Shown piece after piece: positions 1-64,000 of a stretch of 64,000 nt of DNA. Below the pieces are notes generated by a model. That model ran no database searches. It was not told where the DNA came from and saw only the letters and a list, made by a program, of their open reading frames with translations. How positions within the stretch are numbered: the first letter of the stretch is position 1; each line of letters starts with the position of its first letter. Origin of the DNA: Protoeuglena noctilucae (lineage: Eukaryota); contig OY253675.1 in assembly GCA_958009085.1 (NCBI GenBank), positions 620,001-684,000 on the forward strand, given 5' to 3'. Made by a program: the position numbers and the translations under genes.

Positions 1-3000
1 GAGGTATTTGGACAACAACACCTCGTATCCATTCCACACAGCGCTGTAATAGGGGTCCGTGGAGGGGCGGCAGTCGGCCTTGTTGAGGCGGAGGCAGGAG
101 CTGCCCTGGATGATGGCGGCTTGCTTGGGGTCCTTCATCACTGCGATTGGGGGGGAAGGGGTGTTGGGAGTGGGGGTGATGGTGGGTTGGTGGGGGTAGT
201 GTTGGGGTGGTGGTGGTGAGGGTCGTGAGGTGGGATGAGACCGTGTGTTGTCACTGCCACCGTCACTGTTACTATCACCATATTATACTTGCTAATCAAT
301 ATCATCATATCAATCACCATTACCATCCCTCACCTGACCCCGTGAGCCCCAGCGTGGCGTTGCCGTTGAGGATGGACTGCCACTGCACGGCCGCCATATC
401 TGTGAAATGGGACAGCTGCTCTTTGGAATAGACGGCCTCCGTCTTCCATCGCACAGTGCTGACCTGGTTGCCCCAGTAGCGGACCTGGGGGGGGGGAGGT
501 GGGGTGGGGGTAGGGGTGAGTGGGGGGGGAGGTGATGGGGCAGTGGGGGTTAGTGGGGGAGGGGCAGCGGGGGAGAAACGATGCACGTGGTTGGGATCGT
601 GTCGAGTGATCACTTCCCCGATGCAAGCGCACCACCACCCATCCCATCCCACCCGATCCCTGCTACTCCCCCATCTCTCGCCTGCATGAGGTAAGCGATC
701 CAATCTAAACTGCAACCCACTCCGTCATCCCTCGCCTGCATGAGGTAGGTGATTAGATCCTGCGTGCCCACCAGGTCGTGGAGGGGGCTGGTGGTGCTGC
801 GGATCTCGACATAAGATGCCATATGTAATCCCAATATGACGCCGATCAAGAGGACCATGGGGGCCAAGACCAGGGCCAACTGGGGAGGGGGAGGAGTGAG
901 AGGGGGGTTGACGGGGTGAGGTGAGGCGAAGGGTGTGGCGGTGAGAGCGGATGCATTGTCACACCAATGCCCCATCGCTGTATAGCTCCTCCCCTAAATC
1001 CCATCTGCCATTCATCTCAACTCGCCCTCCCCCCACCCCGCCCACGCTCACCTTTCGCTTGGTCCCCCTGTCTAGCTCGATCGTCCTGTCCGGCTTGCTC
1101 CACATGAGCAGGCTGCTGTGCTTCTTGCTCGCATGGGCAAAGACGTCCTCCTGAGTGGCCGCGGCATTGGCAGCATCGGACTCGGCCTCTTCTCTTGTAG
1201 CTGACAGCCTGGGAGTAAATGAGTGGGATAGTGTTTTATGTGAAAGTTGTGATAATGAACATTAACACCCCCACTCCCACTCCCACCCTCGCTGCCACCC
1301 GTGTTGCCACCCCCACTCCTACATTCACACCCACCCCCACACCCCCACCCCCATCTCCCACCCACCCCCACCACCCCATCTCTCACCTGGTCACCAGATG
1401 CCTGGGAATGGCCAGCAGGACCTGGAACAGCGCCCGGCGGTGGCCAATCAGCGGCAGGGCGTGCATCACCACCCCCACCACAAACGCGGGCACGATGACC
1501 ACAATCTGTACCAGCGCGATGATCAACGCGATCGTTTGCAATGATTTCATGTTGCTCAAAGTGGCTTGGCTGATGGAGGTGCGCATGGCGTCCAGGGAGG
1601 GGACCAGGGCAAAGGCCGTGTTGCTGCATTGGGGGGTGGGGGGGGGGGGTGAGTGGTGAGGGGTGGGTGAGTGGGATGAGTGGGGTGGCAGGGTCAGTGG
1701 TGGGTGGTGCTGGGCCAGCCATGTGCAAGTGTCGTTAATCATTACAGTCATTCACTAATAACACTAATGAGTACCAACCCCTCTCCCCCTCACCGCGTGA
1801 CGAACACGAAGGACCGGTCGCTGGCCAGGAGCGTGCGCTGGGCGTCGGTCTTGCGCAACACCAGCAGCGCCTTCTGCACCCACAGCTCTGCGGACGTGGA
1901 TAGGGATGGGTAAAGAGATAAGATAGTGGCTATGTTCTATGCATCTCTTCTGCACCCACAGCTCTGCGGGTGTTGGGTGGCTTGGGGTGGTAAAGATGGT
2001 GAGAACGTCACTTCACTCGCCCGCCTCAGCAACTGTTCTCACTCTCATCTATACACACGCCCACCCCCATCTCCACTCACCCGCCAGCCTGAGCAGCCCG
2101 TCTTGTTCTGTATAATACACCGCCGGCACCGTGTCCTTGTACCTCATGATCGTGATGCCGGGCGTCTCGTAAAGCACGTCCCGCAGATTCGACTTGATGC
2201 CCTGCAGCTTGGTTTGAACGTACTCGTTGCGACTGACTTGTTCTAGGGATAACGCGGACGATTCCATTTCGGCTTGCACGCCCGGCCAGGCGCTGACGGG
2301 GCGGCTGTGGAGGGGGTCGCCGTTGTAGGTGGCTCCGTAGACGTCGGCGTCGGTCGCGACAAAGAGAGAGAGGGCCGTGGTCTGGCCCGCCTCAAATGTG
2401 TCGGTCACGAGGGTCCTGGAGGGGGCAGTGGGATTGGTGTATTGGTATAGGTGTGTTGGTATAGGTGGGTCGCGTGGCACGTACTGCGTGTGACAAGCGC
2501 ATATGGCTGATGATTGTAATCATCACCCGTACCCCCTCGCCTGGACTTGAGCACGAGGCTCACGTACACCGCGAACAGCACCACTGATAGTACCAAAATT
2601 CATAACAATAATAACCATAATAGTCATAATAACAATAAGAACAATAACAATACTAACGTCACACCCCCCAACACTCGCCTGGACTTGAGCACGAGGCTGA
2701 CGTAGACGGCGAACAGCACCACGTGCAGTGCCGCGGTAACCAACACAATCACGGGCGTCCTCGCCCCCACCACATTGGCGAACCGCCACGCCTCGGAGTT
2801 TTCTAACAGTGTCCGCAATCGCCGGTGTCGCTTGGCCTTGCGTATCTGGACGCTCAGATCGACGCGGCCGGTGTTGGGGGAGGGGTCGTCGGGGTCGGGC
2901 TCGTCGTCGTCTTGGGTGGGAGCGGTTGGGTCGGGCTGGGGGGAGAGGGGAGTGGGGGTGGGGGGGTGGGGTTGGCAGTGAGGGTGGCAGTGGGGGTGTC

Positions 3001-6000
3001 GGGCTGTGGGGAGAGGGGAGTGGGGGTGGGGGGGTGGCAGTGGGGGTGGGAGTGGGGATGGTGGGGTGGGGGTTGTGGGGTGGGAGTGGGGTGGGGTTAG
3101 CATTATCGTTGTTTTGGGCCGTGGGGGTGGGGTCGGGCTGGGGAGAAAGGGTGGGGTGGGGGTTGTGGGGTGATGTGGGGGTGGAGATGGGAAGCATGGC
3201 AACGCTGCCTGTGCTTGTGTGTTGATCAGATGCTGTGACCAGCAGCAATTAATATGCAAACACGCCCAGGCTGTCCACAAGCATCCCCCACTGCCCCTCT
3301 CCACCCCCACTCATCCCACCCCTCACCTGCCGCTTCCCGTCCCCCCCCTCTGCTTTGTCCGTCCCCTTCTTCCCCACCACCTTGCCCTTCCCCGCAGTCC
3401 CAGCCTTGTTGTCCTTTTCCTTCTCTTTGGATTTCTCCTCCTCCCCGAACTTCTGCGGATGGAAATTGTGACGAAACAATTAAGTTGGTTAATAAGAAGC
3501 AGTATTAATTATAAACAGCAATCTGTACCAAAAGACAGCTAATCAACAAACAAACATCGACAACCCATCACTCATCGCCAACCCCACAAATCAATCAACC
3601 AACAACAAATCAACATTATCATTCATCGCCTCTTCACCATCTCACCACATGCGACGCGAACCCCACGCTCTTCTTCCTCTCCCCCTTCCCCACCCCGCCC
3701 CCCGCCGCCGCCGCTGCCACCGCCTCTGCCAGCTCCTCCCTCTGTGAGGCCACCTCTCCCCCCATCAACATCTCCAGTCGCTTCAATCCTTCGATTGAAT
3801 TAGCGGGTTCTTCTAACAAGCCCTGCACCAGCAGCTCGTAGCACGTCTGGCCGCCGATTTGTGCTGTGCCGCCGGACACGGAGACTGGGGGCAGAGGGGT
3901 ATAGGTGCATGACTGGTAATGTGTTGCTGTGTTTTACTTCTGTCTACCTATCGATTGTCCTTCCATCACCCTCGCTGCCGCCCCCACTGCTCACGTCCCC
4001 TTGCACACCCACCACCACCCGCATCATCACCCCCATTGTCAACCCCTGACCTCACCTTCCCTCACACCACTTTAAACACGCCAATATCACCTCCACCATC
4101 ACTCTCACCATCAACCCCCCCCCCCCCCCCCCCTCACCCTTCAGCAGCGACCCGTCGCTGTGCAGCGCGTCGATGGCAATGCGCTGCTCCTTGCGATCAA
4201 TCCTCTGCAACAGGCTCTCAGCGGCCGGGATCATCGATGACAGGGGAGTGCCCACCACGCTGGCAGACTTGCGGCCCAGCAATATCTGCGGGGGTTTTGG
4301 GGTTTGGGGTGGGTGTGGAGGGAGTGGTGGGGTGAGTGGTGGGGTGAGCGGGTGAGTGGTGGGGTTGAGTTACGCTGCAGATGCTTTTTGCAGCATTACT
4401 GTAACGGTACCTATCGCATCAACAATGCGCACGCACAGTCTCATCTCTTACACCGAGCCATCACATCCCCACCCGCTCTACTCACCTCGCAGTTCCGGTC
4501 CAGCACCCTTGCAGTCCCACCCATCTCTCTCATCCCTACTCATCACATCTCTCCCATCCCACCCTCATCTCCCTCACCTCGCAGTTCCTGTCCAGCACCC
4601 TGACCGTCCCGTCCCTCCCCACGCCCACATGCCCGTTCACCCAATTCGCGCTCCACACCCGCACGCAGCACCCGCCCTCCTCCGCCCCCCGTTTCAAAAG
4701 ACCAGGGTCCACGTCTCCCTGCCTGGTCAGCTCGGGAATATTCAACGGCGATCGGGAAAGGGATTCCACCGCAAATCGAATTGGGACATAGTCGGGGACC
4801 GATCCGGTTTTTGAAGCGCAAATGAAAGAACCTCGGATGGATGTCAGTGTCTCGTTTTGGAATTCCTTGGCGAGGTTGGCGAGGGTGTTGGCCAGGAGGT
4901 CCTTGGGTTTGGCCTTGCTGTAGAGCTGCGGGGGGTGGAGTGGGTTGGGGTGGGTGGGACGTTGTGGCTCTGAAATGAGTGATGCTAACATCGCTATGAG
5001 CCATGTTACGAATAAGACAAGGCATTTGATTGTCATAAATATATAATCATCTCTCCTTCTCACCTGCCCGTTCTGCACGAGCGTCTGGAACACATCCACG
5101 CAGTCGCTGAGCAGCCGCCCCCGCATGCCCGAGGCATCGATGCCAAACACATCGCCCGGCAATGCCGACCGACTGAACCCCAGCCCGCCCCCCACGCCCG
5201 CAATCACCCCCTCCCCCGTCACCACCATCTGCAGACACGTGCAGCTCTCTAACAGACCCTCCACGCCGTTCACACCCCAAGGGGCCAGCTCCGGCGGCAC
5301 CGGCACGCCATGTGCTTGCACCACCACGCTCATCGTAGCCCCAATGCGCTGCGGCCACCACTGCAGCCTAGCCGAGACTTGCTGGTGGCTCCGGCCTTGT
5401 AACAAGACTGGGTGGCTGTGGTAGCAGGGGATGTGGGGGTGCGGCTGCTCTCCGGATAACACGGACGCCTTCAGCATGCCCAGGTGGAACTGCGGGGGGT
5501 GTTGGGGGGGGGGAGGGGTTGTAATGTTTAAAATATTTGCATTATTAGTTTTGTAAGTATATATTATAAATTTGACACAAAATTATGACAAAGTACTTGA
5601 TTTATCAGGTTAATGAGTCAATTATCAAGCATTTGATGTATTTTGTCATATCAAATACACCCTCCCCCACCCCCCTCGCCTGTGAGTATGGCTTGGGAAG
5701 CATGCTCTCCAGCGTCAGTTTGCGCGTGTCGTTGGCCGCCTCCCCGTAACCCAGCATCTTCTGCGAGAGTGAAAGTGACAAATACAGATAGATGAATGGA
5801 GAATACTTGTGAGAGACTACTAGTGACTACTAGTTACTAGTAGTAACAGCCACTCTCAACAACACCCACTCGCACGTCATCCCACCCCACTCCCACCCCC
5901 CCTCACCAGCATAGGGTAGTTGGTGTACTGCGTCTTTCCCTGGAGATCGAAGACGGCGATGCCGCCGATCGAATTCAAAACCTCGAAGTCCACCTCCACC

Positions 6001-9000
6001 ATCCGACCCTCGCCAATGCCCACCAGGCGCACTGCGGGGATGAGCATGGCTATGTTAATTGGGATACGGGTATTTGAGCAGCTGGAGCATAGAATTGGGG
6101 TAATAATACCTGGAGCGCAGCAAAACACCATCCCTTGCCGCTGGCTGCATGTTGAGCAGCAACCGGTTGCGCAAACGTGCAGCTGCAAACACTCTCTCCC
6201 CAATCACACTCCCATCCTCAGCAAGCCCCCCTTCCCATCATCACCTCTCGCTTTCACCCGCATGGCGTCCCTCTGTCATTCCACCCCCATCACACATTCA
6301 TTCCCATCTCCCCCACCTTTCGCCTTGACCCGCATGGCGTCCCTCCCGAACCGATGCTTGATGCGCCACTCCAGCGTCGCCACGTGCCCCTCCCCCTCCT
6401 CCCCGCCCCCCTGCATCATCCCATCCCCCTCCATCCCCATCCCCATGCCCCCGTCGCCACCCTCCCCGCACTCCCCGTCATCCTCGGCCTCTTGTTGCAA
6501 TGTCGCCACTGCCTCCGCCAATGTCTCCTCCAATTGATGGCCGGGGGCCGCGATCGACTGCACCGTCTGGCCCTGAAGCACGCTCGTCGTGAATCCTGGG
6601 GTCAGGGGGGGGTGGGTTAAAAAGGGTGAGATAGGGAAACGATTCCTGGCGACGAGTGTCGCCCCTAGCAAAGTGCAACCAGTCCATGCAGATAGTGACT
6701 GAGAGTACCCCACTCTTTGCCCCTACCCTCACCCACAACATCAATAGACAATCATCACTCACAATAACAATCCCACTCCCACTCTCCGCCCCTCTGCCCT
6801 CACCCATAGTTACATGCAGTTATCACCCACTCTCTGCCCCTCTCCCCTCACCGGTCGTGGACCCAAACGCGGCATTGACGGCGATGAAGGCCCCCTCTGT
6901 CCCCAGCCACGCCACCGCACGGCTCGAGGGGCCGCCTGAAGGGTGGAGGAGAGTAGCAAGGGTTGTTATGCAAGGAGCACAGAGCACGAAGCACACAGCA
7001 CGATGCACAGTGCAGGCATGGTGCGGATGTCAGGTCGTCTCCACCTATACCCTTGCTCGATGCGCGATGAGCACACTATATAACATCGATAGCATAGTTA
7101 CAATATCATCAATAATGACACAGTCACTGACTAACTAACAATGACACACTCACTTCCGTCGTCCTCCTCGACCGGGTGCATGATCCCGATGAACAGCGTG
7201 CCCTGCGAGCTCTGCCCGATCCTCGTCACCCGCAGCTGCATACTCAAGATGCTCTTGTCCTTGCGAACCGCCAACACTTTTGTTGTTCTCAATAGCATGC
7301 GACCGGTGCCCGTGGCCTTGCATGCGCGCAGGTAGCCGTTGTGGCGGGCGCTGAAGGGTGCAGGCATCAACACGCTCACGTTGATGCCGTCCAGCTCGCC
7401 GGCCTTGTAGCCGAGAACGGAGTTGAGCACTGGGAGAGAGGGTGTGGGTGGGTGTGGGTGTGGGTGTGGGTGGGAGTAGCAGTGTGGGTGTGGGTGTGGG
7501 TGCAAGCAAGTGCATTATCGTTTCCCACTCACCCTTGTTGGTCATCTGGATGATCCCAGTGTCGTTGATGCACACGACGGCGTCGGCCGTATCATCCACC
7601 ATCTCCGAGAGATCGATGCCGCCGTTGGCCATCGCGCTCGACAGCAGCTGCTCCCTCTTGCGTTCCTCCTGGATGTCCTCGATCTTGTCCGCCTCGTTGT
7701 AGAGGCGCATGGCGCGGTGGGGGTCGCACGTCACCTCCTCCCTGAGAGGACAAGTCACACGGGTGAAACAATGATAATTAGAAATTATGATGTTAATGAT
7801 AATCAGCATCGTGTATCGGTACTATTGCAATGGTGAAGAAGAGAAAACGTGGGAAGCTGCGTGCCAGCAGCTTCTCATGTCCAGCGACGCTACAGGTACC
7901 AAGAGCCACTCACGTGAATCTCCCGAAGGATCTTAGGAGCTTGACGTTGTTGGGGTAGCGGGAGACGAGGTTCTTGAAGACGCGGTTGGTGGAGCTCTCG
8001 AACAGGTCGATGTTCCTGCGATGGGGTGAGATGGGAAAGCGAATAGTGAATATGCGTAAGCATCCAAGCAAGAAGGTCCGAGGGCGGTGGAGAGTGTAGA
8101 GTTAGGTGGACATGTTGCAGAAGGGGGAATGAGGGCAGGGAACGTGACGTTACATGCGGAGGTGCACCACAGCACGTTTGGTGCCGCTTGGCCTGGTCAA
8201 ATCACGTCACGTCACGTCGTGCGTCACCTGACGGCGTCGGAGATGGCCTTGAAGGAAATCTCTTTCCGCAACAGGAGCTTCCAGAACTTGCTGGCCGCCC
8301 GCATGGCCACCACGTGACTGTTCTCAGCACCCTTCAACGCTTGCTGGAACTCCGCCAGCGATGTCATGTCCATGGCGCCATCTGCGTGCGAGGAAGAGGC
8401 ATTGGATCGATGATACTAATAACGTCTATTAGAGGTCGTCTGTTAGTGGTAACTTTGTGTCACTTGCATGGCACTCCGCACCGACTCGCGGACACACGAA
8501 CCCTTCCCATAACGCCCCATCGCGTGCAACGCATGCACCCAGCTTCGCTTCGCTCACCGGACCCGAGGTTCTTGCTCTGCACGATGGCCTTGTTGTCCCG
8601 GTCGACCACGAACGTCATGTACCGCGTGCTGAGGCCCGAGGGGATCTTGGCCGCGCGGAGGAGCTGAGCAGACGCAGCCGTGTAGTCCTTGCGAACGAAC
8701 CTGCGAGACGAGGAGGGACGCCAGGGATGGACAGAAGCGACGCGATGTGATGGATCAAGACTGCGGTGTCGGTGAGAAAGGCCGCTCGCCTGAGGTAGTT
8801 GGCGTACTGCAGCACGAGCAGGACGTTGTCCGGGAAGGCCGCCATGCCGTTCTTCAGAATCGACTCTCCCAGCGCCTGGCTGGCGGGGACGTAGTTGCCG
8901 AAGACGTCCTGGTCGCGCACCAAGCGGCTGCAAATCTGCGGGCGGGTGCGGCACGGGGCGGCTTTTGGTTCTGACCTGCAGACGAGCGTCGCTTAAAACA

Positions 9001-11247
9001 CCGCAGCTGCGCGTCCGCGCAGTGCAGGAGTACATAAAAAAAGCTGCAGCGGGCACCGGGGCGGTGCAGCGGAGAGTGCTTGCGGCTGTCGAGCCCGCAG
9101 CACGGGCGCACCCTCAACAGGCGCAGAGGCGAGCCCGGCGGGCGATACGGACGCGACAAGTACCTAATCGATACACATATATTATGCCATAAATACCAAC
9201 GACTCACCTCGAGGAGGGCGGGCCTGACCCCCTGGACGGCCAGCTGCCCATCGGGGCTCTCCCCCGCCTCCTCCAGGCCATTCAAAAACCCATCCTTGAG
9301 CAGCTTGGACTGCGATCGGGGAACGATGTTTAGCTTACAAATTCGTGCGCTTGAGGCACCATTCACGACGGCCCTTTTGTGATCCATCGCTAGCACCGCG
9401 TCTCGCCTGGTAACGGAGCCACACATAGCCGCCGGCGAAGGCGACGGGGATGCCGACGATCATGGCAATCGTGATGCCGGTGCTCGGCGTCTGCACCAGG
9501 CCCATGACAAAGACCATGAGCCCCGCCCACATCAGCGACGATAGCAGCGCCACGCATCCCGCATTGACGTGGGTGCGGTAGTAGCGGTGGCCCCTCCAGA
9601 GGTCCCAGACGGCCTTGCAGCCCAGGACCACCGTGGTGATGCCGACCATGTACCCCTGCTCGCGCCATATGATCATGCACACGACCATGGCGGACGAGAC
9701 GACCATCCACGCCGTCGCGCCCTGGTTGCTGCAAACAGGACCCAAAGAAGAACAGGGATTCTGGCAAGTACTATACAATCGCAGTTGCAACAGGACCGAC
9801 CCTACGCTCGCGGCAACGGCAGGGAGCCGTGCTGACAACATGGCAAGCGAGAGAGGCAGTGCGGTGCAGCGTGTCTTGTTCACGTGCCTTGGGGCGGCGA
9901 GGAGCCTGGTGGAGAGAATGTTGGGGTCAAAATCCGCGAGGCTGTTTCCGATAGCGAGCAGCATGACTGCCGCCAGCGCGATGATGGACACGAGGGACAG
10001 GATCGCACCGGACCCTGCAGGCGGCGACGCAGGGGAGCCAGTGAGTCGTGCGCCCAGGCGAGGCTCAGCGCGACGTGGCAGAGGGAGCGCATCGGGGCGT
10101 GACGTGAGTGGCGCCAGCAAAAGCGCACGTGCGCATGCGATATGCCACGGTGCAATCACATGCCACCTCGCCTGTGTAGCACTGCTTGTCCGGGAAAATT
10201 TTGTTGGTGGCGGGCACGTCCCTCGTGTGTGCGTGGATGACGTTGCACGCCAGGGGAGACAGCAGCACGACCAGCACGGGCAGGTAGAGGACCTCGAGCA
10301 TCACCGACCTGCGACATGGTCATGAGAGAAAAAGAGAAATGAGAGATTGAGCTGAAAAGATGCGAGTTAGTCACAATATAGCAGTGGCAACGTGCTATGG
10401 GCGACGCCACCAGTACCACAGCACAATTCCGATCACCGAGAGCTGCCAGCCGCCCTCGGCGACCGACCCTCTCAGGCCTTCACCTGAGCAGTACGGTGAC
10501 GTGCACTGCGGCTGCCCAAGGGCGCTTCTGCTTGGAGTGGACGAGCGCCTGCAGGCCCACGAGGGCCACCAGGGCGCAAATCACGCCAGCACAGGCGTAC
10601 ACGATCGCAGTGAAGATGCTGCGCGCGGAGAGGAGTTGCTCTTGCGGCGTGACATCCATGAATCCATGCCGCTTGAATCCTTGCCAGCCGGGCTTTCCCA
10701 AGCGCTCACTGACCTGTACCCAAGCTGGCGCTCGATGTGCGTGATGTCTGTCCACGCCAGCACTCCCATCCAACCTCCCTCATAGGCCCAGTGGAACTGC
10801 GTGGTCGGGATAGAACGAGTTTTCGCGCATCATCGCGCCTTGGGAGGACGAAATTCACGCTTTAGCCCAGGCAGACGTACCTGTGGGCCCAGCAGGAGCC
10901 CCAGCAGGACCAGGTAAGGGAAGACAAGCGCCACGATCGCATACTGCGCGCATACGTGACGTTGAGGGATGCGTTAGGTGCTTGTTGAGATCGTCTCGAG
11001 CCGCAACGACACGCTCTTTGCGCCACGACCTCGCCTTCCAGCTCGCCGAGTACCGGACCGCGCTCGTCGTGTAGAGGAGACGGAACAGAGTGTCCTGCAG
11101 GCCGCCGTCCTTGATCAAAAGGCCGCCCGCGCCGTCCACGCGCCGGAAAGCCTTGATATCCCCGGTGGCGTCTGCCGTAGCGTCCGTCAGGGCCGCTGAG
11201 CCCGAAAACGAGTGGCCCGAGGAGCTGGGCCTCGTGCTCCCCTCCAT
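1..11247 (-). CDS. Tiny macrocysts B (TmcB/TmcC)-like multi-pass membrane protein with several PAS domains; multi-exon, 3' end runs off the window
   Basis: Spliced exons give an N-terminal multi-TM block (YAIVALVFPYLVLLGLLLG, MLEVLYLPVLVVLLSPLAC, GCVALLSSLMWAGLMVFV), a helical linker (AFPDNVLLVLQYANYL; RAMRLYNEADKIED), a clear PAS (VDDTADAVVCINDTGIIQMTNK|VLNSVLGYKAGELDGINVSVLMPAPFSARHNGYL, 7140-7610), further PAS-like units at ~6900, ~5930, ~5200 and ~4600, and C-terminal TM segments. ATG at 11247. Confidence 0.85.
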
Positions 11248-14145: not shown

Positions 14146-16571
14146 ATGGCGCGTCCGGGCTTTCCCAACGGCCCTTTCTCATCGCCGCACCCGGCCGGCG
14201 GCCCCCCCGGACCCGCCTATCCGCAAATGAACGGCCCACCTGCGCCGTACGCGCAGCAGCCGTTCGCCGGGCAGCCGTTCGCTGGCCCGCAAGCGGGGGC
14301 GTGGGCGGGGCAACCTGGGGCTGGTGGCAGCATGGGTGCAGCGCCGGGACCGGCCCTCGCGCCGCATTCCATGCCCGGACATGCCCCGGCGCCTCGGCCC
14401 GTGATGCTGGGCCCGGCGACGGGAATGCAGGGGCCGCCTGGCATGGGGATGGGTCAGCCACAGCCGATGGGGATGATGGGGCCTGGGGGCAACCACCCAG
14501 GGCAAATGGGAATGGTGAACAATGGCATGGGTGGTGGGGGCATGGGTGGCGGGGGCATGGGTGGTGGGGGCATGGGTGGCATGGGTGGTGGTGGGGGGAT
14601 GGGTGGGGGAGCAATAGGGGGTGCGGGTGGGGGTGGGGGTATGGTGAACGGCGGGATGAGTGGTGGGAACTTCGTTGGGATGGGTCCGATGGGGATGATG
14701 CAGCCGGGGATGGGCCCTGGTAACAGGGGCGCACCGCCTGCTATGATGGGCGGCGTTGGGATGGGGGGCGGGGGGTGGTGGGGCGGCATGGGGGGCATGC
14801 CAATGGGGGGTGGGGTGCAGAGGCCCTGGATGGGGGGTGGGCCTGGTATGGGTGGCATGGGTGGCATGCGTGGGGGCGGCATGCCGGGCCAAGGGGGGCA
14901 GGGCGGTGCGGGTGAGGGGTAGCGGAGGGGAGGGGCGTCGGTGTTGGTTGTGCATACTGTCAGTCGACGTTAGCTTATCATCCATGGCAATTGTTTTGAC
15001 TGTCAGTCGACCTCATCCACGTGATTGTCGTGAACCGGACCCTCACACCCACCACACCACCCACTCAACCCACTCAACCCATGTACTCACCCACTCACCC
15101 CACTCACCCACCTCCCCTCCCCCCCAGGCCAGAAGCGCCGCCGCGGCGACGACGGCGGCGCCCGTGGCTCCCGTGGCAAGCGCGACCGGCCGGGTGGCCA
15201 AGCGGGGACGTCGCTGTCGGACTTCTACAGCCAGTCGACGCCTGCGGTGGCGGAGGGGAAGGGGGAGGCGGAGAGAGAAGAGGCGCGGCGGTGGAGGGAG
15301 GAGCGGAGGCGGAACTTCCCGGGGTCGAAGGCGAGTGGTTGGGGATTACGATGATATGTGTATATGAGAACAGTTAGTGATGAGTTACAGCAGTGGTGGG
15401 TGAGGGGAGAGCAGTGGGGGCGGAAATTCCCGGGGTCTAAGGCGAGTGGATTGGATGATATGTGTGGGTGAGAACAATCAGTGGTGTCAGTGGTGAGCGA
15501 GAGCAGCCAGTTATGATAGCATAGGTGGTGGTCATCACTGCGATGGCGACTGTGCATCGGTCGCGGCTGCGATGGTTAGCAATGGTGGCAAATGTCATGA
15601 TTGTCATCGTGCGATCATCAGCACTAATCACCACTGCGTCTAACGTGATAATTGCCACTCTGCGATCATCACCACCATCACCACTATCACCATTATCACC
15701 ACTACCACCATGATCTCCACTATAGCCACTAATCACCACTGCATCTCTTTCTCCCCCAGGACCGTGAGGGCGCGGATGCTGCTGAGGAGCGCCGCCGTCG
15801 CCTGCGGGAGGTCGTGGAGATGCAGCGGCGAATGGGCATCGACAGAGAGGCGGGGACGACTGACCTGGCCATCACACTGGATGGGAGGGGTGGTGGTGGT
15901 GGTGGCGGTGGGGGTGGTGGAGATGGGGTGGATGGGCGTGAGGGTGTGAGGGGCAAGGGCCCCGATGCGGACTGGATGGGGCGGAGGGTGCCCAGGGACG
16001 CAACGCTGGTGAGGGGGTGGGGGTGGGGGACAGAATGTGGGAGGGAGAGTGTGCGTGCAACGCTGGTGAAAGTGCTTTGTGTTACTAACACTGTGTTACT
16101 GTTTCGCCATTAAGATAAACGTTCACATTACTACTCCCTCTCTCCCCTTCCATGCAGCTAGAGAAGCTGCTATCCAAGGAGATGCGCGTGGACATGTCTC
16201 GCCTCATCCAGCTGTGCCGGTTCGCGGTCAACAACAACTTCTTCCAATCGGGCAACCCTGGGTGGTTCCCCAGAGATCCCCCCGCTACCAAACACGAGCT
16301 CAGGAGGGCGAGGGTGGCGGAGGCAGAGGCGGCAGCTGCAGCGGCAGAGGCGGCGGTGGGGGTGGGGGGTGACGGTGAGGGTGATGGGGATTGGGAGGGT
16401 GATGAGGGGGATGGGGAGGGGTTGCGGGTTGATAAGGAGCGTGGCGGGGGGCTGGGGAATGCGGGGGATGGGGAGGGGTGGGTGGGGGGAGCGGGGGGTG
16501 AGGGCGGGGAGAGTGGGGAGAGTGAGGGGGGCGGGGAGGGTAGCGACGGGGGGGAGAGTGGTGGGGAGTAG
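14146..16571 (+). CDS. NUFIP1: NUFIP1/Rsa1-like box C/D snoRNP assembly factor with a Gly/Met/Pro-rich N-terminus
   Basis: EEARRWREERRRNFPGSK (~15275-15330) is the NUFIP1/Rsa1 PEP-type motif; TL|LEKLLSKEMRVDMSRLIQLCRFAVNNNFF (16158-16245) is the conserved C-terminal motif. Confidence 0.8.
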
Positions 16572-17145
16572 TGGTGCGGGGGCGAGGCTGTTTGTGTTAC
16601 ATGCACCAGCCCATGACGGTTTGTTGAGTAAACTTGTCACTAGCGAGGGGATCGCTGCTAGTAGGAGCGTTGTTAGTGGCAGGGGAGTTGCGACTTGTGT
16701 AGTGTCGTGCTATGGATTTGTGCATGACTAATCGTGCATTGTGAAGGGAGAGCACGTGATGTGACCGACTGCAGCTGCTTGCCGCTCATTCCATCACTAT
16801 TACATTCACTATTCACAACGGTCGTGTCGTTTCAAACGACATCATTCTGACAGTTTCGCGACGCAGCAGCCGCCACGCCTGCAACACCACGCCCCGCCAC
16901 CCCAAGCAGGCAGCAGGGCTGGCGACAGTAAGGGTGACAGCAATGTGGTGGGTAACTATGATATTGGACAGGAACCATGGCAAAAGCAGCGAGAGTTGAC
17001 GGTGGTGGATCGACCTTACCACCCGCCTAGCCACCCTGCACCCCGCACCCCTAACAGGGCGCCCACTCCCGCCCCCAACAACCACAGTCGGCGCCTGCCG
17101 TTGGCTTAGCCCTCCATCAACCCCAGTGATCCCCGCTCATAATCC

Positions 17146-20100
17146 TCAGTCGGCCTCGGCCATCGCCACTTCTCCGTCTGCCGCTGCCTGGTCCCCGCCA
17201 TCCCCCGCCTGCCCGCCCTCGCCATCCCCCGCACCCTCACCCCCATCTGCACCCTCGCCCACTCCGTCACCCGCACCCTCATTGCCATCCGCACCCTCAC
17301 CCACACCCTCCGCCTGCGAAGCAGGATTACAGTTATTGATTGAGCTTTAATCATAAGTCACGTTTACAGGTACAGACACGACTGATACACTGAATAACAC
17401 AGGCTTATCGCCAACAGCCCAGCTTATACAGCCCCCACCCCCCCCACCCCCCCACTCCTCACCCCCTCCCTCGCCTCCCTCTCTCTCCTCTCCTGCTCCT
17501 CCTCCCTGCTCCGGAACTCGCTCCACAGATGCTCCGCCTCTGGCTGGCCGCGGTTATCGGCACCGCCACCCCCGCCCTCGTTTGAACCACCCTCGTCCGC
17601 ACCGTCCTGAGGTGATGGGTGTGAGAGAGAGAGACAGTGAGAGAACTATGGCGATGATGACATGATCATCGATATGGTATCCCAATCGAAGCAAGTTTAC
17701 TCGGTTAAGAGCTTGAATCGAATCCATCCCACCCCTCACTCGCGCCATTGCCACTCCTCCCCGACCCTTCCCATCCCATCTCACACCCCCCCCACGCTCC
17801 ACGCCAACACCACCACCCTAACCCATCTCACCCGTTTTAAACCATCACCACCCACCCATCTCACATTACCTCCCCCCCCACAACCGCCTCACCTGCGCCA
17901 TGGCCGCCCACGCCCCCGGGTTCTGCACCGTGACTTCCTTCCTCTGAGGAGTGTGCTTGAGGATGTGAAGCGGCACCCCCGCAGCACGTTCCACCTTGCT
18001 GGCGGCCATGTGACGGTCCCCAGCCCTCACGCCCTCCTCCGCCCCTCCCACACCGGCCCCCGCCCCACCCTCCACCTCAACCTCCCCACCCCCCTCCGCG
18101 CCCTCGCCCTCTCCCTCTCCCTCGCCCTCTCCCTCTCCCTCGCCCTCCCCGCTGCTGCTGCTGCTGCCCTGGGGGGCCTGCAAATGCAAACACACGCGTG
18201 CATGCGTTGCAGCATCACAGATGATGCACAGGGCAACACGACACCCCATGCAATCGGGAATCAATCAAGTCATGGTAACAACAAACACCCCAACCCACTC
18301 ACAAGTCTCACACCCACAGCGACCGCCCGGTACGATCGCCACTCGCCACCCCTCATCATTCCCCATCCCAATCCCGCTCACCTTGGGAGCCTCGTCGTCG
18401 CTTCGATTCTCGCCGACGCCGCCCTCGCCCTCCCCGCCCTCCCTTTCCGCCCCCCTCTCACCCTCCCCATCCCCATCGCCATCGCCGTCACCCACCCCCG
18501 CCCCCGCACCCTCCCCCACCACCTCTCCCTCCCCCTTCATCCCCTCAGCTTCCCCCACACCCTCTCCCTCCCCCATCGCCACATCTCCCTCTTTCTCACC
18601 CTCACCCTCTCCCTCACCCACACGCGCACCCTCCCCACCTCCCTCAGCCTCCCCCACTCCCTCTCCCTCGCCCATCGCCACATCCCCCTCTTTCTCTCCC
18701 CCCCCATCCCCGCCCACCACCCCCACCGCCCCATCTCCCTGCTTCTCACCCTCCCCCACACCCGCACCCGCACTAACCCCCGCACCCACCCCCTCACCCC
18801 CCACGCTCCCCGCCCCCGCCTTCACACCCCCCTTCCCCTCTTTCCGCTCCCTCAGCCCCCTCAGCAAATCCTGCAGCGCCCGCACCGTGCGTGCGTCCAT
18901 CGTCGCGACATCCACCACCACGTCATCCCCAGGTACGTTGGGCGCCGCCAGTAGCATGGGGTGCGACGCCGCGACCGCCTCCAGCACCGCCGTGAGGGCG
19001 TCGCCGGGGATCGATCCCAGATCCAGGGACAGGCGACGGCGTTCTTCGAAAGTGGGCTCGGCGGGGCGCTTGGGGTCGCGGGACGCCAGTGGATCGTCGG
19101 GGAGCTTGCCCGCCTCCACGTGGGTGCGGAGGTCCTTCGACGCATCGGACATGTCGGCTGGGGTGAGTGGGGAAGTGGGTGGGAGTGGGTGAGGGTGGTG
19201 ACAGTGAGTGAGAGTGAGTGAGAGTGAGCCAGGGTGACAGTGGGTGAGGGGGTGAGAGTGGTGAGTGCACACCACTTCGCAACCGCAGCTGCATCTCTAC
19301 TACCCACTGCTCAACAACATCACTGCCACTACCCCACCGCCACCACCACCACTACTACCACCACCATTACCACTCTACCAAGTCACTACCACCACCGCTA
19401 CCTCCCACCCCACCCCTCACCCGCCAGCCTCTCCATTGCCGCCCCCTCCTCCCCCGGCCTGGCCTCCACCCCGTGCCCCTGCTGCCGCCGCACTTGCGCC
19501 TGCAGCTCGGCCACCTTCACCTCCATGCGGCTCTGCGCCCACTTGCGCTCCCAGGCCTCGCTCATCAGCTCGCCCGCGAACCGCACGTCCGTGCCCGTGG
19601 GGTTGTACAACCGGCAGTTGTGGAACATGAGGCGCATGTCGTCGCGGACCTGGGGGGGGGGGGGGGAGAGAGAGGGAGTGGTGGTGGCGGTGATGGGGAG
19701 GGGGAATGAGGATGGTATGATGAACGAGGATGGCGTCTCTATCCCGTTAGATAACACGTCACAGCGCCTGCACTCATCCCATACCGACTTGACCCACCCC
19801 ACCCCACACCGCCACCCCATCTCACCTGCAGCGGGTTGGTGTACTCGCGCCTGTTGTACCCCGTGATGGGGTCCTTGCGCGCCTTGAGCCGCTTCTCAAT
19901 CGTAGACAAATCCATGGGCTCCTGCACGATCTCGAAGTAGTCGGGGATGCCCAGCTTGATGGGGTCCACGGGCTGGGCGAAGATCTGGGGTTGAAAGGTA
20001 AAGAGAGGGAGGTGAGGGGTGAGGCAAGTCAAGCTTGATGGGGTCCACGGGCTGGGCGAAGATCTGGGGTGGGAGAGGTGGGGAGGGGCGAGGTGAGGGG

Positions 20101-20909
20101 TCAGACCGTATGATTCAGCTGGCCCCCTTGGCTCACGCTTCCACCTCGCCCACCCCCCTCCACCTCAACCCCCCCCCCCCCCCCCAACTTCCACTCCCAC
20201 TCCCAACCCACTCCACCCCACCTGTCACCCACCCCGCACTCACCGCACCCACCCCCATCTCAACCCACCCCACTCCCACCCCACCTCACCCACTCCCCCA
20301 ATCCCCCTCACCTGTGCCCCCGAGTTCTTCTTCAGCACCCTCACGATCTTGTTGCACTCCGTGAAGAGCGGCTCCAGCTGCGCCCAGATGTGAGACCCCG
20401 AGGACTGCAGGTCCATCTGCTGGCTTGGAGGAGGCGGGTCGCGCTTCCGGAGGTCGCGGCCCGGGGGGGCCGACATCACCGCCGAGGGGGCGGGGGGGGC
20501 GCGGCCTGCAGGAGTGACGGCGTCCTTTGCCTGTGGGGGAGAGGGGGGTGGGGCAGTGGGGGTGGGAGTGGAGATGTAGTGGGCGTGGCGGTACATGCGG
20601 CAGCGCTGGTGAAGGTTGCGTGGGGCAGCGCGGACGGCAGTGCGCGTAGCAGTGAGGTCGGGATGCAAGGCACGAGGGTGCTTGCTCCCCCATCTCTGTG
20701 AGAGAGACACACCGCTCGGGAGCTCACCTGGGCCGCGGCCGCCGCGAGGCGCGCCTCCGCCTCCGCCAGCTCGCGAATCTTCCTCTCCACCGCATCCTTC
20801 TGCGACAGGACCTTGCGCAGCTCCTGTGGGGCGAGAGGGGAGAGGCTTGGTGGGGCTCGGGTTGGTGACCAAGCAGTCCGAGTTCGAAAGCAGCGGGCCG
20901 CCGTGACAT
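17146..20909 (-). CDS. BET/GTE-family protein (one bromodomain plus ET domain)
   Basis: [33 protein letters not shown]...[22 protein letters not shown] is a bromodomain; [28 protein letters not shown]...[15 protein letters not shown] is an ET domain. TGA at 17146-17148. The first exon is not resolved. Confidence 0.88.
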
Positions 20910-25004: not shown

Positions 25005-25320
25005 GCTCTCAGCGATCGCTGCAGCACGATGGCGGCGCTCGGGTCATAACCGCCCTCGACGCGCCAGTCATCTGCCGTATTTCCGGACACTAGGGTGCCT
25101 TTCCATGACAGGAACCTCTCCTCTTTGAATTCAGCCATTCCTCGGTGTGAGTTATTGAGTGAGCTAGCGCACTCGCATCGCACATGGGCAGGCCGGCTGT
25201 GCTGGGCCCTGCGGATGCGGCCTGGCCGCGCGAGTAGTTCACGAGAACAGAGTATTCGCGCCTAGTTGCGTTTCTCGCGTCCTCGTCCGCCATCGGCGGC
25301 GCGCGCCCCGGGGAGCGAGG

Positions 25321-38500: not shown

Positions 38501-40828
38501 CCGGACGGCCGGCGCGTGTTTATCGGCGACGAGCACGACGTCACTGCTCATGGTGGCAACATCATGGCATTTAACAAGGCGTGGAAGTCTGCTCCTATTC
38601 GCTCATGGGTGAGGGAGCGGTTGGGGCGAGGGGCGGTCGTGCTGTGGGCGGGGAGGGATTTGTACGGGTCTGCCATCGCTAAAGAATGGTCACAGCATGA
38701 AGCATGGAATATTGACTTGTTATGAAGCTGTTATGAAGCTGCACCATGCAACCCCGACCATCGTCCTCCTGTCGCAGTCTGGGGGATTCAAACTGGCGGA
38801 CCTCCCCGGCGCGATTGCGAATCGCGTGGTGCGCAACCGTCTGTCCGACTGGATGGGCCCGCACGAGGCGGGGGTGCATGAAACAGCGCGTGCGGTGTGG
38901 GCCGCGATGCTGTCTGTGCCGCACACGCGGGAGGCGGCGCATCGGATGGTGGAGTATCTGGACGGCACGGCGCTGAGGAGGGCGACGAGGATCCCAGGGA
39001 CCGGATTCAATGCGTACAGGCGAGAGCAGAGATGGGGGTGGTGGAGGTGGTGGTCAGCAATCCAGCAAGTGATGGGTGGTGGTGGTGATAGGGCAGGGGT
39101 GACCGTCTCAATATCGACTGGCCCACAAATCAGCTTAAGTGTATAGTTACTGCTGGCAAGTGTATAATTATTAATATAAAGTCTCCTCCTTCCCCATCCA
39201 CTCAGTCTCAACATCGACTACCGCACCGGTCACCTCTTACAATATTAACTCTTTAATCACAGACACTAACTCCCACCTTCCCCTCCACCCAGCCTGAACA
39301 TCGATTACCGCACCGGTCGCCACGTGGACGGCAAGAACATGCCCGGCAGTTACTCTGCGTTACTCATCGTGGAGACGGGAGAGCCTTTCTTAGGGGGATT
39401 CTACATGGCGCCTCAGTTCCGAGTCGGGTTCGACCTGAGGCAGGTGACATGGGGAACATGGTGGTATGTGAGTGCGACTGTTACAGTGCTACTGTTACAG
39501 TCGCAACAGGGTGGCAAGCATTTGATGACAGGGTCGGGTGTCGGGTGCGGTAAGGTGAAGTGGAGACCCCCACCATCACACTTTCGATGACCAAAACTAT
39601 CCAATATATCGATTGCCATTGCTCATTTACTCTTCTCTCACCCCCCCCTGCAGGGCTGCGTGTTGTTCCACCGCAGCGGCGACCCCCACGTGGGCGTCCA
39701 CGGCAACGCAGCGCTGCATCTGCCAGAGCCCAGCAGTCACCGGGTGGCGCTGGTGTTCTATTGCACAGAGCTCAGGGACGGAGGGGGGGTTGGCGGGGGG
39801 GCGGGGGGCGATGTTGTGGGGGCAGCCACGGGGGTGGCGGGTGGGGAAGCAACGGGGGTGGGAGAGGGAGGCGGGGCAGTGGAGGTTGGGGAGGGAGGTG
39901 GGGTGGGTGGTGGGGAGGGGGATGGCAGGGGGCTGCAGGAAGGGAGAGGTAGCGGTGGGGGTGGGGGTGGGGCAAAGGTTGGCGTCGCAGCAGCAACTCC
40001 AGCTTTGCGAGACAGTACAGTGGGGCAAAATGGTGGTGGTTGCACAAAGAGAAAGGTGCCGAGTGACGGGGGAGGGGCGGAGTGGATGGAGGCGTGGGGG
40101 TGGGATGCGCCAGGTGTGCGTGGCAAAGGGGAGGGGGGGTGCGGTGGGAAGCAATCAGTGGGGGGCAGTCAAAGTGCACTTGCGCAGGGAGGACTTGGGC
40201 CGGCGGTGGCAGGAAGGGCGGGCGAGGGTGCGGTTGGCAAGAGCGTGGGTGCAGGGGGGGATGGCAAGGGCGGTGTGGGTGCGGACGCCTCCCTAACGAT
40301 CCACGCGACTGCTGACGGTTCTTATGACGACAACGATATCGACGTTTGTGGCGGTGACATGGCGTACGGTCCAGGCACCTTGCCGGCTGCCATCGCGAGC
40401 CTGTTCAAGAGCAGTGGCGGTGGGAGGAGGGGCAAGGGGGCTGCGGAGGGGGCGGTGGGGAGTGCGGGGAGGGCGGGGGTGGAGGGTGGAGGGAAGGGGG
40501 AGAAGCGGAGAGCGGGTGGGGCGGACGGGGCAGCTGTGCCTGCCAGGTGAGTTGGAAGAGTTGAGTGATAGGGTGCTGCAGTGTTCGTTAGCTACAGTCA
40601 CAGTCTACTTTGTGATCGCTCCCCTGTGCATCTGCTGCAAGCATGCCAAGGAGTCACCATAGCCATGCCACAATACTGCTAGTCTCAACCACCCACTGCA
40701 ATCGCTTCTCTGTTTGCCGCAGCAAGCGTGCCAAGAAGTCGACCCGGCGCTACCCCCGCTGCGGGGCGTGCAAGTTCTGCATGAACATCCACTGGCACAG
40801 GCCATGCATACGCAACCAGGAGGAGTGA
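32578..40828 (+). CDS. TET/JBP-family 2OG-Fe(II) dioxygenase with CW-type zinc fingers and a C-terminal CXXC-like motif
   Basis: Spliced core FNAYS|LNIDYRTGRHVDGKNMPGSYSALLIV...FLGGFYMAPQFRVGFDLRQ|GCVLFHRSGDPHVGVHGNAALHLPEPSSHRVALVFY shows HxD...H...RxxxxxY. zf-CW motifs HWVQCDVCQKWRKV (~34120) and HWASCDACGKWRAV...WTC (~36240); last exon RCGACKFCMNIHWHRPCIRN. The start and the linkage of all exons into one gene are inferred. Confidence 0.82.
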
Positions 40829-49501: not shown

Positions 49502-52500
49502 ATGGCAGCAAAGGCAGCGATCCGCGCCATCGGGGCGCTTTCGCTCTCAGGTCCGTGCGCGCTCGCCAGGCGCCATCCGCCGCGCAGGCCGCACACAAGC
49601 AGACGAACACCTTTTTTCTGCGCCCTGTCCGCAGCCTTCGGCAGCGGAGCGTACTTGTACAACACTGATGAGGGCGCGCAAAGGCAAGGGGCTGCCACCG
49701 CGCGCAGCCAGGGGATCCTGGGCGCGAGCTGACTCTGTAACCTTTCGCTTCGCGTTCAGGATGATTCAGATGTACGGCGCCTTCGCTCCCGTGGTGCTCC
49801 ATTACCGTCTTCTTGAGGCGAAGCAGGACCGGCTGGGTATCAAGCCGGCTTCCAAGGTGCGGTACGCCGCCGATGCCTCGCTTCAATGCACCAAACTGTC
49901 ATTTGAATACATACGCACTTGACACCACGCTCGCTCCGCAGGAGGAGGCGGACGCGGAGTGGGAGGACCTGCACGAGCGCTGGTCGCCGCACGTGCTCGA
50001 GTCGATGCGCAAACTGCAGGGATTCTACATCAAGGTCGGCCAGGTCCTCGCAGGTCGCACCGACACGCTTCCGCCGCAATATACGGACAAGCTGCGCACG
50101 CTCGAGGACGCCTGTCCTCCTCGACCCCTCGAGGGTGCGTTGTTGGACGCGCAGTGAGCCGCGCCCGGCCACAGTCGCCCGTCCGCAGCTTCATTATCGC
50201 GACATCTTCCCCCTCCGCAGAAATCCGCGGCATCGTGGAGTCGTCGCTGGGCGTCTCGATGGACGCGGTGTTTAGCGAATTCGACGAGAAGCCCCTGGGC
50301 GTGGCGAGCATCGGCCAAGTGCACAAGGCGCGGCTGCGTGAGGGGGGCCAGGTGGTGGCCGTCAAGGTCCAAGACCCGAAGGCGAGGGAACGCGGATGGA
50401 TGCACAATTAGCTCGATCAACACGAATGGTCATAGGCCGCTACCAATGCTACCCACATCGCCTTGCTGCAGGCAGAGCGGCTCTTCCGATCGGACATTCG
50501 CACGGCGCGGGGGTTCTGCACGCTCCTCGCGCCAGAGCAGGTGCGGGCGGGCCCTCGCTCACACAACGCTGTCGCTGCACCCGACCAGATCGTATGCCTC
50601 ATGCAGCTCAGGCCCATTCACTGCGCGAGCACTCGACTCCCCGCCCCGCGACCCGCAGTTGATTATCTTCGACGAGATCGAGCGCCAGTTTCTGACGGAG
50701 TTTGACTATCGGCTAGAGGCAGAGCAGGTCGCAACGGTTAACCGCAACATGCGGCCCTTCTCGCGACAGGTGGCCGTGCCCAGGGCTTACCCCCAGTACT
50801 GCTCCAAGGTGAGGGCATGACTAGCTCACCCGCAGTGGTACTGCTTTTAAGATGAGTGACACCACCAACGCTGTGCTGTGGTTCGACTGCCTGTGCACTT
50901 TACCCGTTCCCTCTGTGCCACAGCCCTGGCCACCTCCCCTTACTCCCCCAAATGTGCTGCATGGGAGGACACACACAATGACCGCCTCCCCTCCCCTCAA
51001 CCCCCCAGGACGTGCTCGTGATGGACTATCTCCCGGGTCGCAAGCTTTATGATGTGGTGCAGGAGGAAGGGACCAAGTATGCGGCCAGGCAGGGCAAGAC
51101 ATTCGCGCAGCTGCAGAAGGAGGTGAGGGGGATGAGGGGTGGTGCAGTGGCTGAGAACAGAGGTGATGGGGTGCAGTGGCTGAGGACAGAGGTGCAGGGG
51201 TGGTGCAGTGGCTGAGGACAGAGGTGCAGGGGGTACAGTGGCTGAGAACAGAGGGGCTGGACAGAGAGGTGCAGTGCTTATGGCAGAGGCATGTCGAGGA
51301 GTGCAGTGGTGTGGGGGGTGCCATGGGTCACAGCAGCATCGTAGCGTTGGCAGTGGTGACGCTTTCGCACCAAGCTCTCTCTGTTCCTGCAGATGCACGA
51401 GAAGATCAAGAGAGAGGGCCTCCCGCCGCCTTACAAGGGCCCGGGCGCCTTCCAAATCGAAATGTACCGAAGGTGACATGTTGATTACATGGAGAGGTCT
51501 GAGTAGCCGAAGTATGACTATGGCTAGTTACATAGCACGCAACTATGGCTAGTTGTGTAGCCATAGTAAGGGTAAGGGTACCAGCCAATGCTCCTCTTCA
51601 TCTTCCACTTCCCTCGCAGGTTCCTGGCATCTCGCGACTTCGTGCTCAATGTGCCACTCCGTGCCGTCAACGCGGTGGCGTGGGTGCTGCGCCTGCCGCC
51701 CCTGCCGCTGTGGCGCACGGACATCCCGCCCAACTCCGCACGCATCATGGACGTTCTCATGAAAGTCATGGGACACCAGGTGAGGAGTGAGGATGTGAGT
51801 GGGAGGGAGGGTGTGATTGGATGTGCTCATGAAGGTCATGGGGCACCAGGTGAGGTGTGAGGGCGTGAGTGGTGCCCCAATGACTATGTGCAAGCACCCT
51901 AAGGACTGTGTATGAACACTCTGTATATGCAAAACGTGCTCCCCTTGTCATATATTCCAGATCCTGGTCGACGGTTTCTTCAACGCGGACCCCCACGCGG
52001 GCAACTTCCTCCTGATGCCCGACGGCCGCGTCGGCTTGATCGACTTTGGGCAGATCAAGAGGCTGACGGAGTACGAGAGGTATCAACTGGCCAAGATCCT
52101 GCGGTGCCTCATGCGGGGGGACAAGCAGGAGCTCAAGGCACTGGCGCTCAGGTGACGGGTGGTGAGAAGTGGGGTGGGGAGGGGAGTGGTGGTGAGGAGG
52201 CAGCATCCCCTTCACTCCCCGTCACACCGCAGCCACGGCTACCAGTTGCGTAACTTGGGCTATGCAGTCACTTAACTCACGACCCACTCGTCACCCCTCG
52301 CAGCCACGGCTACCAGTCAAAGTACCTAGACGCCGACGTCATTTGGAACATGACGCGCTTCGGCCTCGACCAGGACGGCCCAGAGGTGACCGGGGGTCTC
52401 AATGTGCAGCAATTCATGGACCAGCAGTTCCGGAAGGACCCGTGGAGCAAGACGGACGACCTGGTCATCATGCCGGTCAGGTGATGGGTGCTGTGATGAT

Positions 52501-52782
52501 CAACCTAAGATGACTGTTGCGATGATCTCATGGTGGTGAAAGTGACGATGGATTGGGCTGCATACGGTGGCTCTCGCCTTCGCACCCTCATCCTCGCCCC
52601 CACTCCCCTCTCGCAGGGTGAGCTTCATGCTGCGAGGCGTGGGCCTGTCCCTGGGTCACCCCGTGAGCTCCCTGCACTACTGGGGCCCCCTGGCACTCCA
52701 AGTGATCAGCGACTACGAACGGCGCCACCCTGACCACCAAGGGCAGAGCGCGGGGCCAAAGACGCAAACACAGAAAAGCTGA
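49502..52782 (+). CDS. ABC1/UbiB (ADCK) atypical kinase
   Basis: GFYIKVGQVL, LRTLED, PLGVASIGQVHKA, VAVKVQ, EFDYRLEA, VLVMDYLPG, FFNADPHAGNFL and LIDFGQ. Confidence 0.93.
51141..51255. repeat. Intronic minisatellite, about 4 copies of a ~29-32 bp unit (gtgcagtggctgag[a/g]acagaggtg...)
   Basis: Seen directly inside an ABC1-kinase intron. Confidence 0.9.
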
Positions 52783-63500: not shown

Positions 63501-64000
63501 CCCCCCCCCAGGGCTGCGAGCCCAAGGGCTTGTTCCAGGGCTGCCCCCAATGCCTGCTCTTTAGCACCCTGGACTTAATGTGGAGGACCGCCAATCACTT
63601 GGAACTGATCAAGGCCAACCCCGTCAAGGACCCCCCCCACAAGGTCGCGACTGACAGGGACGTCGCCAGAATGGCGTTTGGGGAGGACCTGGAGGCCGCG
63701 GGGGGCACGGACCGCATGCAGAAGTTCGAGTTCCTCATGGACTCGAGACAGGTGAGGGTGCTCACCCTCACTCACCTTCACTCTCCCGTGACCCTCCCAG
63801 TACTGACTCACTCCCACTTTACCATACCACTCCCAGTGCGGCAAGCTCCGTGTCCTGGACTTACCTCATCCTCTCCCACTCTTTTTGCCCCTCACAGTAG
63901 TAATGACTCACTCACCGTTACTCACCCTCACATTCTCCCTCACTCACCCCCCCCCTCCCCCCCCCTCACTCCCTCTCCCAGTGCGGCAAGCTCCGTGTCT
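60538..64000 (+). CDS. SNF2-family ATPase, ERCC6L2/CHR9-like; partial, runs off the window
   Basis: LRDYQIEGVAFL, GAILVDDMGLGKTLQVIAFL, VLLICPTSLKDNW, VVDEAHKIKN, ALTGTPMPN, ANHLELIK and CGKLRV. The start is uncertain. Confidence 0.9.

Follow-up and report, generated by a model that had tools for sequence, protein, structure and literature searches.

Exon ends that recur, splice site included, inside the adjoining intron have been described in the human F7 gene, whose intron 7 is the closest single case to the repeats reported here. There, intron 7 carries a 37-bp minisatellite whose first unit lies across the exon 7 boundary, and the donors in the repeats are identical to the authentic one yet silent, the most upstream site being chosen (PMC1557585). 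We analyzed a 64,000-nt stretch of the Protoeuglena noctilucae genome (GenBank assembly GCA_958009085.1, contig OY253675.1, positions 620,001–684,000 of the forward strand), hereafter the window, numbered from its first letter, and found at least 14 loci at which a short segment spanning an exon–intron junction is repeated inside the intron; the intronic copy is referred to as the echo. The feature common to both systems is an exon end and donor repeated inside the intron. In F7, however, whole units are arrayed head to tail at a single locus, whereas most loci here hold two copies around a non-repeating spacer; unlike in F7, acceptors are duplicated as well, at least 14 loci occur in 64 kb, and the echoes diverge in a coding-like manner. 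The kind of event is known from F7; new are how often it occurs here and the coding-like way in which the echoes diverge.

Internal gene duplication and intron gain were reportedly addressed by Gao and Lynch in 2009. One review describes how introns are gained when a stretch of exon containing AGGT is duplicated in tandem, as well as new Daphnia introns flanked by direct repeats, for which break repair is proposed (PMC3443670). As outlined there, AGGT-type gain shares with the present loci a small tandem duplication that yields two equivalent splice signals, the extra copy being spliced out and the protein left unchanged; the difference is that no new intron arises here, an existing junction being straddled and the old intron growing. 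Each intron in the window extends past the inner copy to an independent acceptor or donor, a layout other than that of AGGT-type gain. Vector integration in Ostreococcus tauri produced a 518-bp direct target duplication and inserts of 55–83 bp of unknown origin (PMC8002553). Break repair with filler of this sort has in common with our loci the direct target repeats around a unique short insert, and differs in that several loci here show tandem-type homology instead. In marine protists, introners likewise bring about large-scale intron change, and the target duplication provides a splice site for some of them, but they fall into families whose similar members have typical ends and duplications of typical length, whereas each copy here is gene-specific (PMC12130899). 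A search of the open literature, supplements lying outside it, returned no description of recurrent junction echoes in an alga.

The initial annotation had listed fourteen such repeats and described them as gene-specific and not a transposon family. In a base-by-base comparison, 13 of the 14 were reproduced where it had placed them, at 87–100% identity: 677/731 (17/17), 1872/1948 (22/22), 2536/2674 (46/49), 4481/4573 (27/28), 6243/6315 (28/31), 15308/15419 (29/31), 19953/20032 (38/38), 26668/26715 (16/17), 39198/39285 (30/34), 51748/51818 (34/38), 52229/52300 (18/18) and 63832/63977 (22/22), together with the triple at 27913/27958/28013. For the remaining pair, 16001/16057, the repeat exists and only its written register was wrong: as listed, 2 of 12 positions match, the coordinates being one base off, and in register the pair is an exact 13-mer (16000–16012 and 16057–16069). 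Gene-specificity held as well, in that a self-BLAST of the 64 kb contained no shared intron family; apart from the local pairs it showed just two dispersed matches, which are unrelated.

The excess of such repeats over chance was measured by a gapless scan (match +1, mismatch −3, score of at least 14), with offsets of 25–300 taken as local. It returned 55 local direct matches, against 1, 1, 0, 3 and 0 in distant controls at offsets 1025–1300, 2025–2300, 3025–3300, 5025–5300 and 8025–8300, respectively; at a score of at least 13 there were 72 local matches versus 2 distant ones. Fifteen of the 55 local rows contain no base above 50%, and these comprise 11 of the listed pairs, two rows of an array at 51135 and two others (14464, 15622). 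The triple at 27913 reaches a score of at least 14 yet is G-rich, and the pairs at 16000 and 26668 score 13. Local inverted repeats numbered zero at a score of at least 14 and three at 13 or above, which is the chance level, a planted control having been recovered. The repeats are real, local, on the same strand and far above chance. Three cases absent from the original list were added by the scan, namely a third copy at 39105–39119, the array at 51135–51274 and a duplication at 7114/7140.

Read on the coding strand, every locus has the layout repeat–spacer–repeat, and at all 14 the splice site lies inside the repeat with the spare copy on the intron side. Nine loci duplicate an exon end with its donor, the spare copy lying downstream, and five duplicate an acceptor with the exon start, the spare copy lying upstream. 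The recognizable repeat measures 12–55 nt, the spacer 15–120 nt and the spacing between copies 44–145 nt, with an exon part of 8–44 nt; the intron part, where short, consists of little more than the splice consensus. Echoes retain consensus splice sites at 14 of 14 loci (GYGAG or GTG donors, or CAG acceptors), with weakened echo donors at 16057 and 26715. Exon-derived repeats that stop short of the junction, or lie wholly within an exon, were not found in the window.

Among the donor loci, four lie on the minus strand. The exon copy at 726–747 consists of an exon end and a GC-type donor, CAG|GCGAG, its frame being that of the open reading frame (ORF) at 613–993, and its echo lies in the intron 54 nt downstream, at 672–693. 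The copy at 2674–2722 comprises 44 nt of exon end and a GCGAG donor; its echo at 2536–2584 is identical at 46 of 49 positions, and all three differences are synonymous. The spacer of this pair is AT-rich at 2602–2647 (29% GC), where a 9-nt repeat, ATAACAATA, occurs five times, and it differs in this from its surroundings. An exon end with a GTGAG donor at 4573–4601 is echoed at 4481–4509, the sole difference being AGG/CGG, both Arg, and gapped homology continues for about 20 nt beyond. The exon end with the start of a GTG donor at 6314–6345 has its echo at 6242–6273, where two of the three exon-part differences are synonymous. The remaining donor loci are on the plus strand. At 15308–15338 an exon end is followed by a GCGAGTGG donor and echoed at 15419–15449, beyond which homology extends into the intron at a 7-nt offset (12-mer at 15350/15454). 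The 13-mer at 16000–16012 reads GCAACGCTG|GTGA and recurs exactly at 16057–16069, and the kinase-domain exon end with GTG at 26668–26684 matches its echo at 26715–26731 in 16 of 17 positions, the weakest case of all. Three copies of CACAG|GCGAGGGTGATGGGTG... begin at 27908, 27952 and 28009 (27908–28046), the first being the exon end. The longest repeat, at 51748–51802, joins 32 nt of an ABC1 exon end (MDVLMKVMGHQ) to 23 nt of intron, and its echo at 51818–51872 carries four exon-part differences, all synonymous.

As for the acceptor loci, two are on the minus strand: CCGCAG| with 17 nt of exon start at 1871–1893, repeated without change (23/23) in the intron 76 nt upstream at 1947–1969, and ACCCCAG| with 32 nt of a bromodomain exon at 19953–19991, repeated at 20032–20070 with 39 of 39 positions identical, within a gapped alignment of 70 nt at 88.6%. 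The other three are on the plus strand. An acceptor ...CCACCCAG| with 26 nt of exon at 39280–39318 is echoed at 39193–39231, with three of three exon-part differences synonymous, and the third copy at 39105–39119 (plus strand) is older and decayed and has lost its AG. The acceptor CGCAG| with 14 nt of an ABC1 exon at 52299–52317 has an identical echo (19/19) at 52228–52246. The acceptor CTCCCAG| with an SNF2-gene exon start at 63975–63999, cut by the window end, is identical to its echo at 63830–63854 (25/25); upstream of each copy a 15-mer (63799/63899) matches at 14 of 15 positions with a spacing of 100 instead of 145, and the difference in spacing is located in a C-rich tract.

Three further features resemble these loci. 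On the minus strand, an intron start is duplicated over 26 nt at 7114–7154 (7114/7140), reading A|GTGAGTGTGTCATT and then A GTGACTGTGTCATT. An array of about four to five units of 29–32 nt, each with GAG|GTG, occupies 51135–51274 on the plus strand, beginning 12 nt past the exon end at 51122, and its unit resembles that junction. A duplication lying wholly in the ABC1 intron 51474–51619 (51517–51554, exact over 13 nt, copies 25 nt apart) represents a like event away from a junction.

Which of the two copies is spliced can be approached through conserved proteins and reading frames. The ABC1 homologs P0001 and P0003 align collinearly and without gaps across the introns 51780–51960 and 52153–52303 (tblastn). 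For the first gene, a word-based homolog search gave no matches, and a HMMER search then found P0025, which aligns as ...LVLKSR|TLVTD... across the intron 2419–2678. The Pfam bromodomain match starts at the exon start 19984. Because homolog collinearity and the bromodomain start both fall at the outer boundaries, it is the exon-contiguous outer copy that gives the conserved protein. Splicing at the echo site, in turn, would shift the reading frame or run into an in-frame stop at 10 of the 11 loci with an assignable frame, which rules out the echo as an alternative coding exon end at those 10. The exception is the echo donor at 672, which would add 18 in-frame, stop-free codons (ARDDGVGCSLDWIAYLMQ), and 672–747 is the only echo that could yield an alternative protein isoform. 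From homology and frame taken together, we infer that the outer splice site is used and that the inner copy is probably a silent decoy. Regarding the consequences envisaged in the initial annotation, that of potential decoys is borne out by the retained consensus splice sites, that of alternative splice sites is mostly contradicted by the loss of frame in those 10 of 11 loci, and that of intron growth agrees with the repeats lengthening their host introns by 44–145 nt.

We consider that these repeats are probably gene-specific small local duplications filtered by selection, with the outer site spliced and with no junction targeting needed. A junction-straddling segment would be copied 44–145 nt away in the same orientation, and 12–55 nt of it would still be recognizable today. 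Some of these events may be tandem duplications in which the low-complexity portion on the intron side later diverged or altered in length, and others resemble break repair, in which a unique spacer of 15–120 nt would come to lie between two target copies. Duplications that disrupt an exon would be purged by selection, and with a repeat spacing close to intron size, many survivors would straddle a junction; the exon-contiguous outer site would then be spliced and the inner copy would stay behind in the intron, a decoy that is not used. Observed directly are the repeats, their orientation, their placement with respect to coding sequence and their recurrence in other assemblies; the route of mutation and the filtering by selection are inferred.

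A tandem origin is visible as homology beyond the core, with insertions and deletions, at 15308, 19953, 4481, 39193 and 63830. At 15308 a 33-nt stretch of the spacer recurs after the echo with a 7-nt shift, and at 19953, 70 of 79 nt are alignable with gaps at 88.6%; such whole-unit gapped homology is present at these two loci and absent at 2536, 51748 and 52228. Three-copy series (27908 and 39105) and a true array (51135) also occur, and duplications inside introns are found at 51517 and 15622 and in numerous arrays rich in G or C among the rows of Tandem Repeats Finder (TRF). Overall, the spacer is unlike its flanks in 9–10 of the 14 loci and homologous to them in the remainder; the loci at 2536, 51748, 52228, 16000 and 26668, with a spacer unrelated to the flank, look like a duplicated target with filler DNA between the copies. 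Only at 15308, 19953, 16000 and 63830 is the spacer pieced together from sequence close by, and none was copied from elsewhere in the window (no match of at least 18 nt within the 64 kb). Snap-back copies of the polymerase-theta type are unlikely, as inverted echoes were not found.

Several observations weigh against local duplication filtered by selection, at least in its simplest form. Random breakpoints predict neither an intron part of 3–13 nt at 12 of the 14 loci nor an exon part below half of the spacing at all 14, and a detection bias against G-rich repeats may contribute to both. TRF, in a first run and in a second at a score of at least 45, called none of the echo pairs tandem among the matches listed, only the 51135 array. 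The spacers at 2536, 51748, 52228, 16000 and 26668 are unlike their flank, so that a single mechanism is not established. Between exon copies and echoes, 14 of 17 differences are synonymous (seven loci with differences and a set frame), and in the 70-nt alignment at 19953 all differences lie outside the 39-nt core, which is identical. The short intron part and the small exon part are also what a junction-targeted process would offer in its own favor, one in which breaks or template switches prefer the boundary between the exon and the G-rich (5′) or C-rich (3′) intron; to these may be added the inclusion of the junction in 14 of 14 exon-derived repeats and the G runs that often follow directly after the repeat. 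A break hotspot at the change of composition is possible. We nevertheless regard targeting as unlikely, for exon-only duplications are excluded by selection alone, duplications inside introns are common, and repeats made up mostly of G-rich intron are hard to recognize as junction copies. A junction-aimed process is not needed to explain the repeats, because intron-internal duplications exist, exon-only events are lost to selection and the spacing is near the intron length. By geometry alone, a large share of tolerated duplications would be expected to straddle a junction. In ABC1, whose roughly 10 introns were mapped by homology, three introns carry junction repeats and one an internal repeat.

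That a mobile element or retro-copied fragment with long and variable target-site duplications produced the loci appears very improbable to us. The repeat–spacer–repeat structure and the unique spacer in 9–10 of 14 loci would suit it, but the spacers are unlike one another and the rest of the window, terminal inverted repeats are lacking (no local inverted repeats at a score of at least 14), the repeat length varies from 12 to 55 nt instead of being fixed, and the spacer composition is that of the adjoining part of the intron. A transposon family and snap-back templated repair are both unlikely, given that there is no shared element, no spacer match and no inverted copy. Least credible of all, in our estimate, is an assembly or haplotype-merging artefact, even though assemblies of heterozygous genomes can generate short local duplications. 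We looked up ORFs that read through repeat, spacer and repeat, letter for letter, in public ENA and Logan contigs, where 5 of 20 matched; the 15 misses are uninformative, as the ORF ends were guessed. The ORF spanning both copies at 51748–51857 (P0018) was found on 20 contigs (Logan and ENA), that through both copies at 672–747 (P0020) on 15, that over both copies at 16000–16069 (P0030) on 7, and that across all three copies at 27908–28046 (P0021) on 2, the longest of 7,488 nt, the independence of the contigs being uncertain throughout; the fifth, P0031, covers the exon copy and spacer only. Since read-through ORFs for four loci recur on 2–20 public contigs, a single-assembly artefact is unlikely. 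Further points against it are that 93% of sampled words from 600–10599 are present in marine metagenome runs of another study, that coding sequence is spared at 14 of 14 loci, which is not expected of artefacts, and that several pairs have diverged. Among the 60 loci that a metagenome scan for orthologs yielded, identity reached 64% at most, and none could serve for a before/after comparison.

The divergence of the echoes raises a different question, namely whether they are kept, either by selection for a role in adjusting splicing, be it as decoys or as alternative sites, or through concerted evolution with the exon. The 17 differences fall at third codon positions in 14 cases, and the synonymous share weighs against a freely decaying echo, because free decay does not predict it: with the echo decaying freely and only synonymous change in the exon, 38% of differences should be synonymous (P = 0.00024). 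Also in favor of kept echoes are the consensus splice sites that persist in the older pairs 2536, 39193 and 51748, the 39/39 core at 19953 that adjoins diverged flanks, and the donor at 672 with its 18 stop-free in-frame codons. On the other hand, the differences number only 17, and P becomes 0.06 once half of them are assigned to the exon copy; splicing at the echo would break the frame at 10 of 11 loci, and the oldest copy, 39105, is without its AG. On balance we judge it rather improbable that the echoes are kept in either way. The differences nonetheless suggest that echoes evolve in concert with their exons, which, with so small a sample, is a lead and not a result. Because echoes cannot be coding and yet differ mostly synonymously, the simplest reading of this lead is that the two copies exchange sequence, whether through gene conversion or through loss followed by renewed duplication, and that echo mutations would thereby be exposed to selection on the exon.

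A more far-reaching version, which we put forward only tentatively and consider doubtful, holds that micro-duplication marks about one intron in 10, that echoes evolve in concert with their exons under second-hand selection at the protein level, and that the process feeds decoys, intron growth and new introns (at AG|GY in exons). If the pattern is genome-wide, it would constitute a natural experiment on how the spliceosome chooses between identical competing sites, with dozens to thousands of perfect decoys, donors as well as acceptors and GC-type donors included, and it would provide a concrete route for the growth and turnover of short introns. The coding-like divergence, if confirmed, would mean that selection reaches a non-coding copy via sequence exchange with its functional twin. 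In GC-rich algal genomes, echoes of this kind will also lead gene predictors and spliced aligners astray.

The window in which these loci lie has a GC content of 57–72% and zero N, and its genes, which lie on either strand, are intron-rich and eukaryotic. Several were recognized from Pfam matches of open frames: a bromodomain gene (about 19400–20160, minus strand), a protein kinase (25168–26692), an ABC1/ADCK kinase (about 49750–52710) and an SNF2 helicase (60630 to the window end), in addition to GST, zf-CW, UDPGP, OST48, a cpn60/TCP-1 family chaperonin and rhomboid; the closest protein relatives reach 60–68% identity only. In its base composition (roughly 65% GC), short introns and numerous GC-type donors, the window resembles what has been described for Emiliania huxleyi (PMC4028052). 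Pelagomonas, at 0.45 introns per gene (PMC9481584), does not fit so intron-rich a window and was rejected as its source. GC-type donors (AG|GCGAG) are frequent in the window, as at 731–735, 2674–2678, 15331–15335, 27920–27924 and 39020–39024; they account for four of the nine duplicated donors and also serve the intron 39020–39292. On the coding strand the introns are asymmetric, with GGGGTG-type runs after donors and C-rich tracts before acceptors.

Short-period arrays are abundant (253 TRF rows), examples being 2914–3183, 7431–7502, 16430–16597, 18437–18844 and 28121–28239, and some C-rich arrays, such as 18437–18844 with its periods of 18 and 150 nt, may be low-complexity stretches of coding sequence. 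Two direct copies of a dispersed repeat, each about 145 nt long (29270–29414 and 31916–32055, 83–87% identity, 2.6 kb apart), possibly represent pieces of neighboring paralogous genes. Finally, 14460–14930 is a coding-looking, Gly/Met-rich stretch of 9- and 15-nt repeats (GGCATGGGTGG...), in which one 15-mer recurs 222 nt apart.

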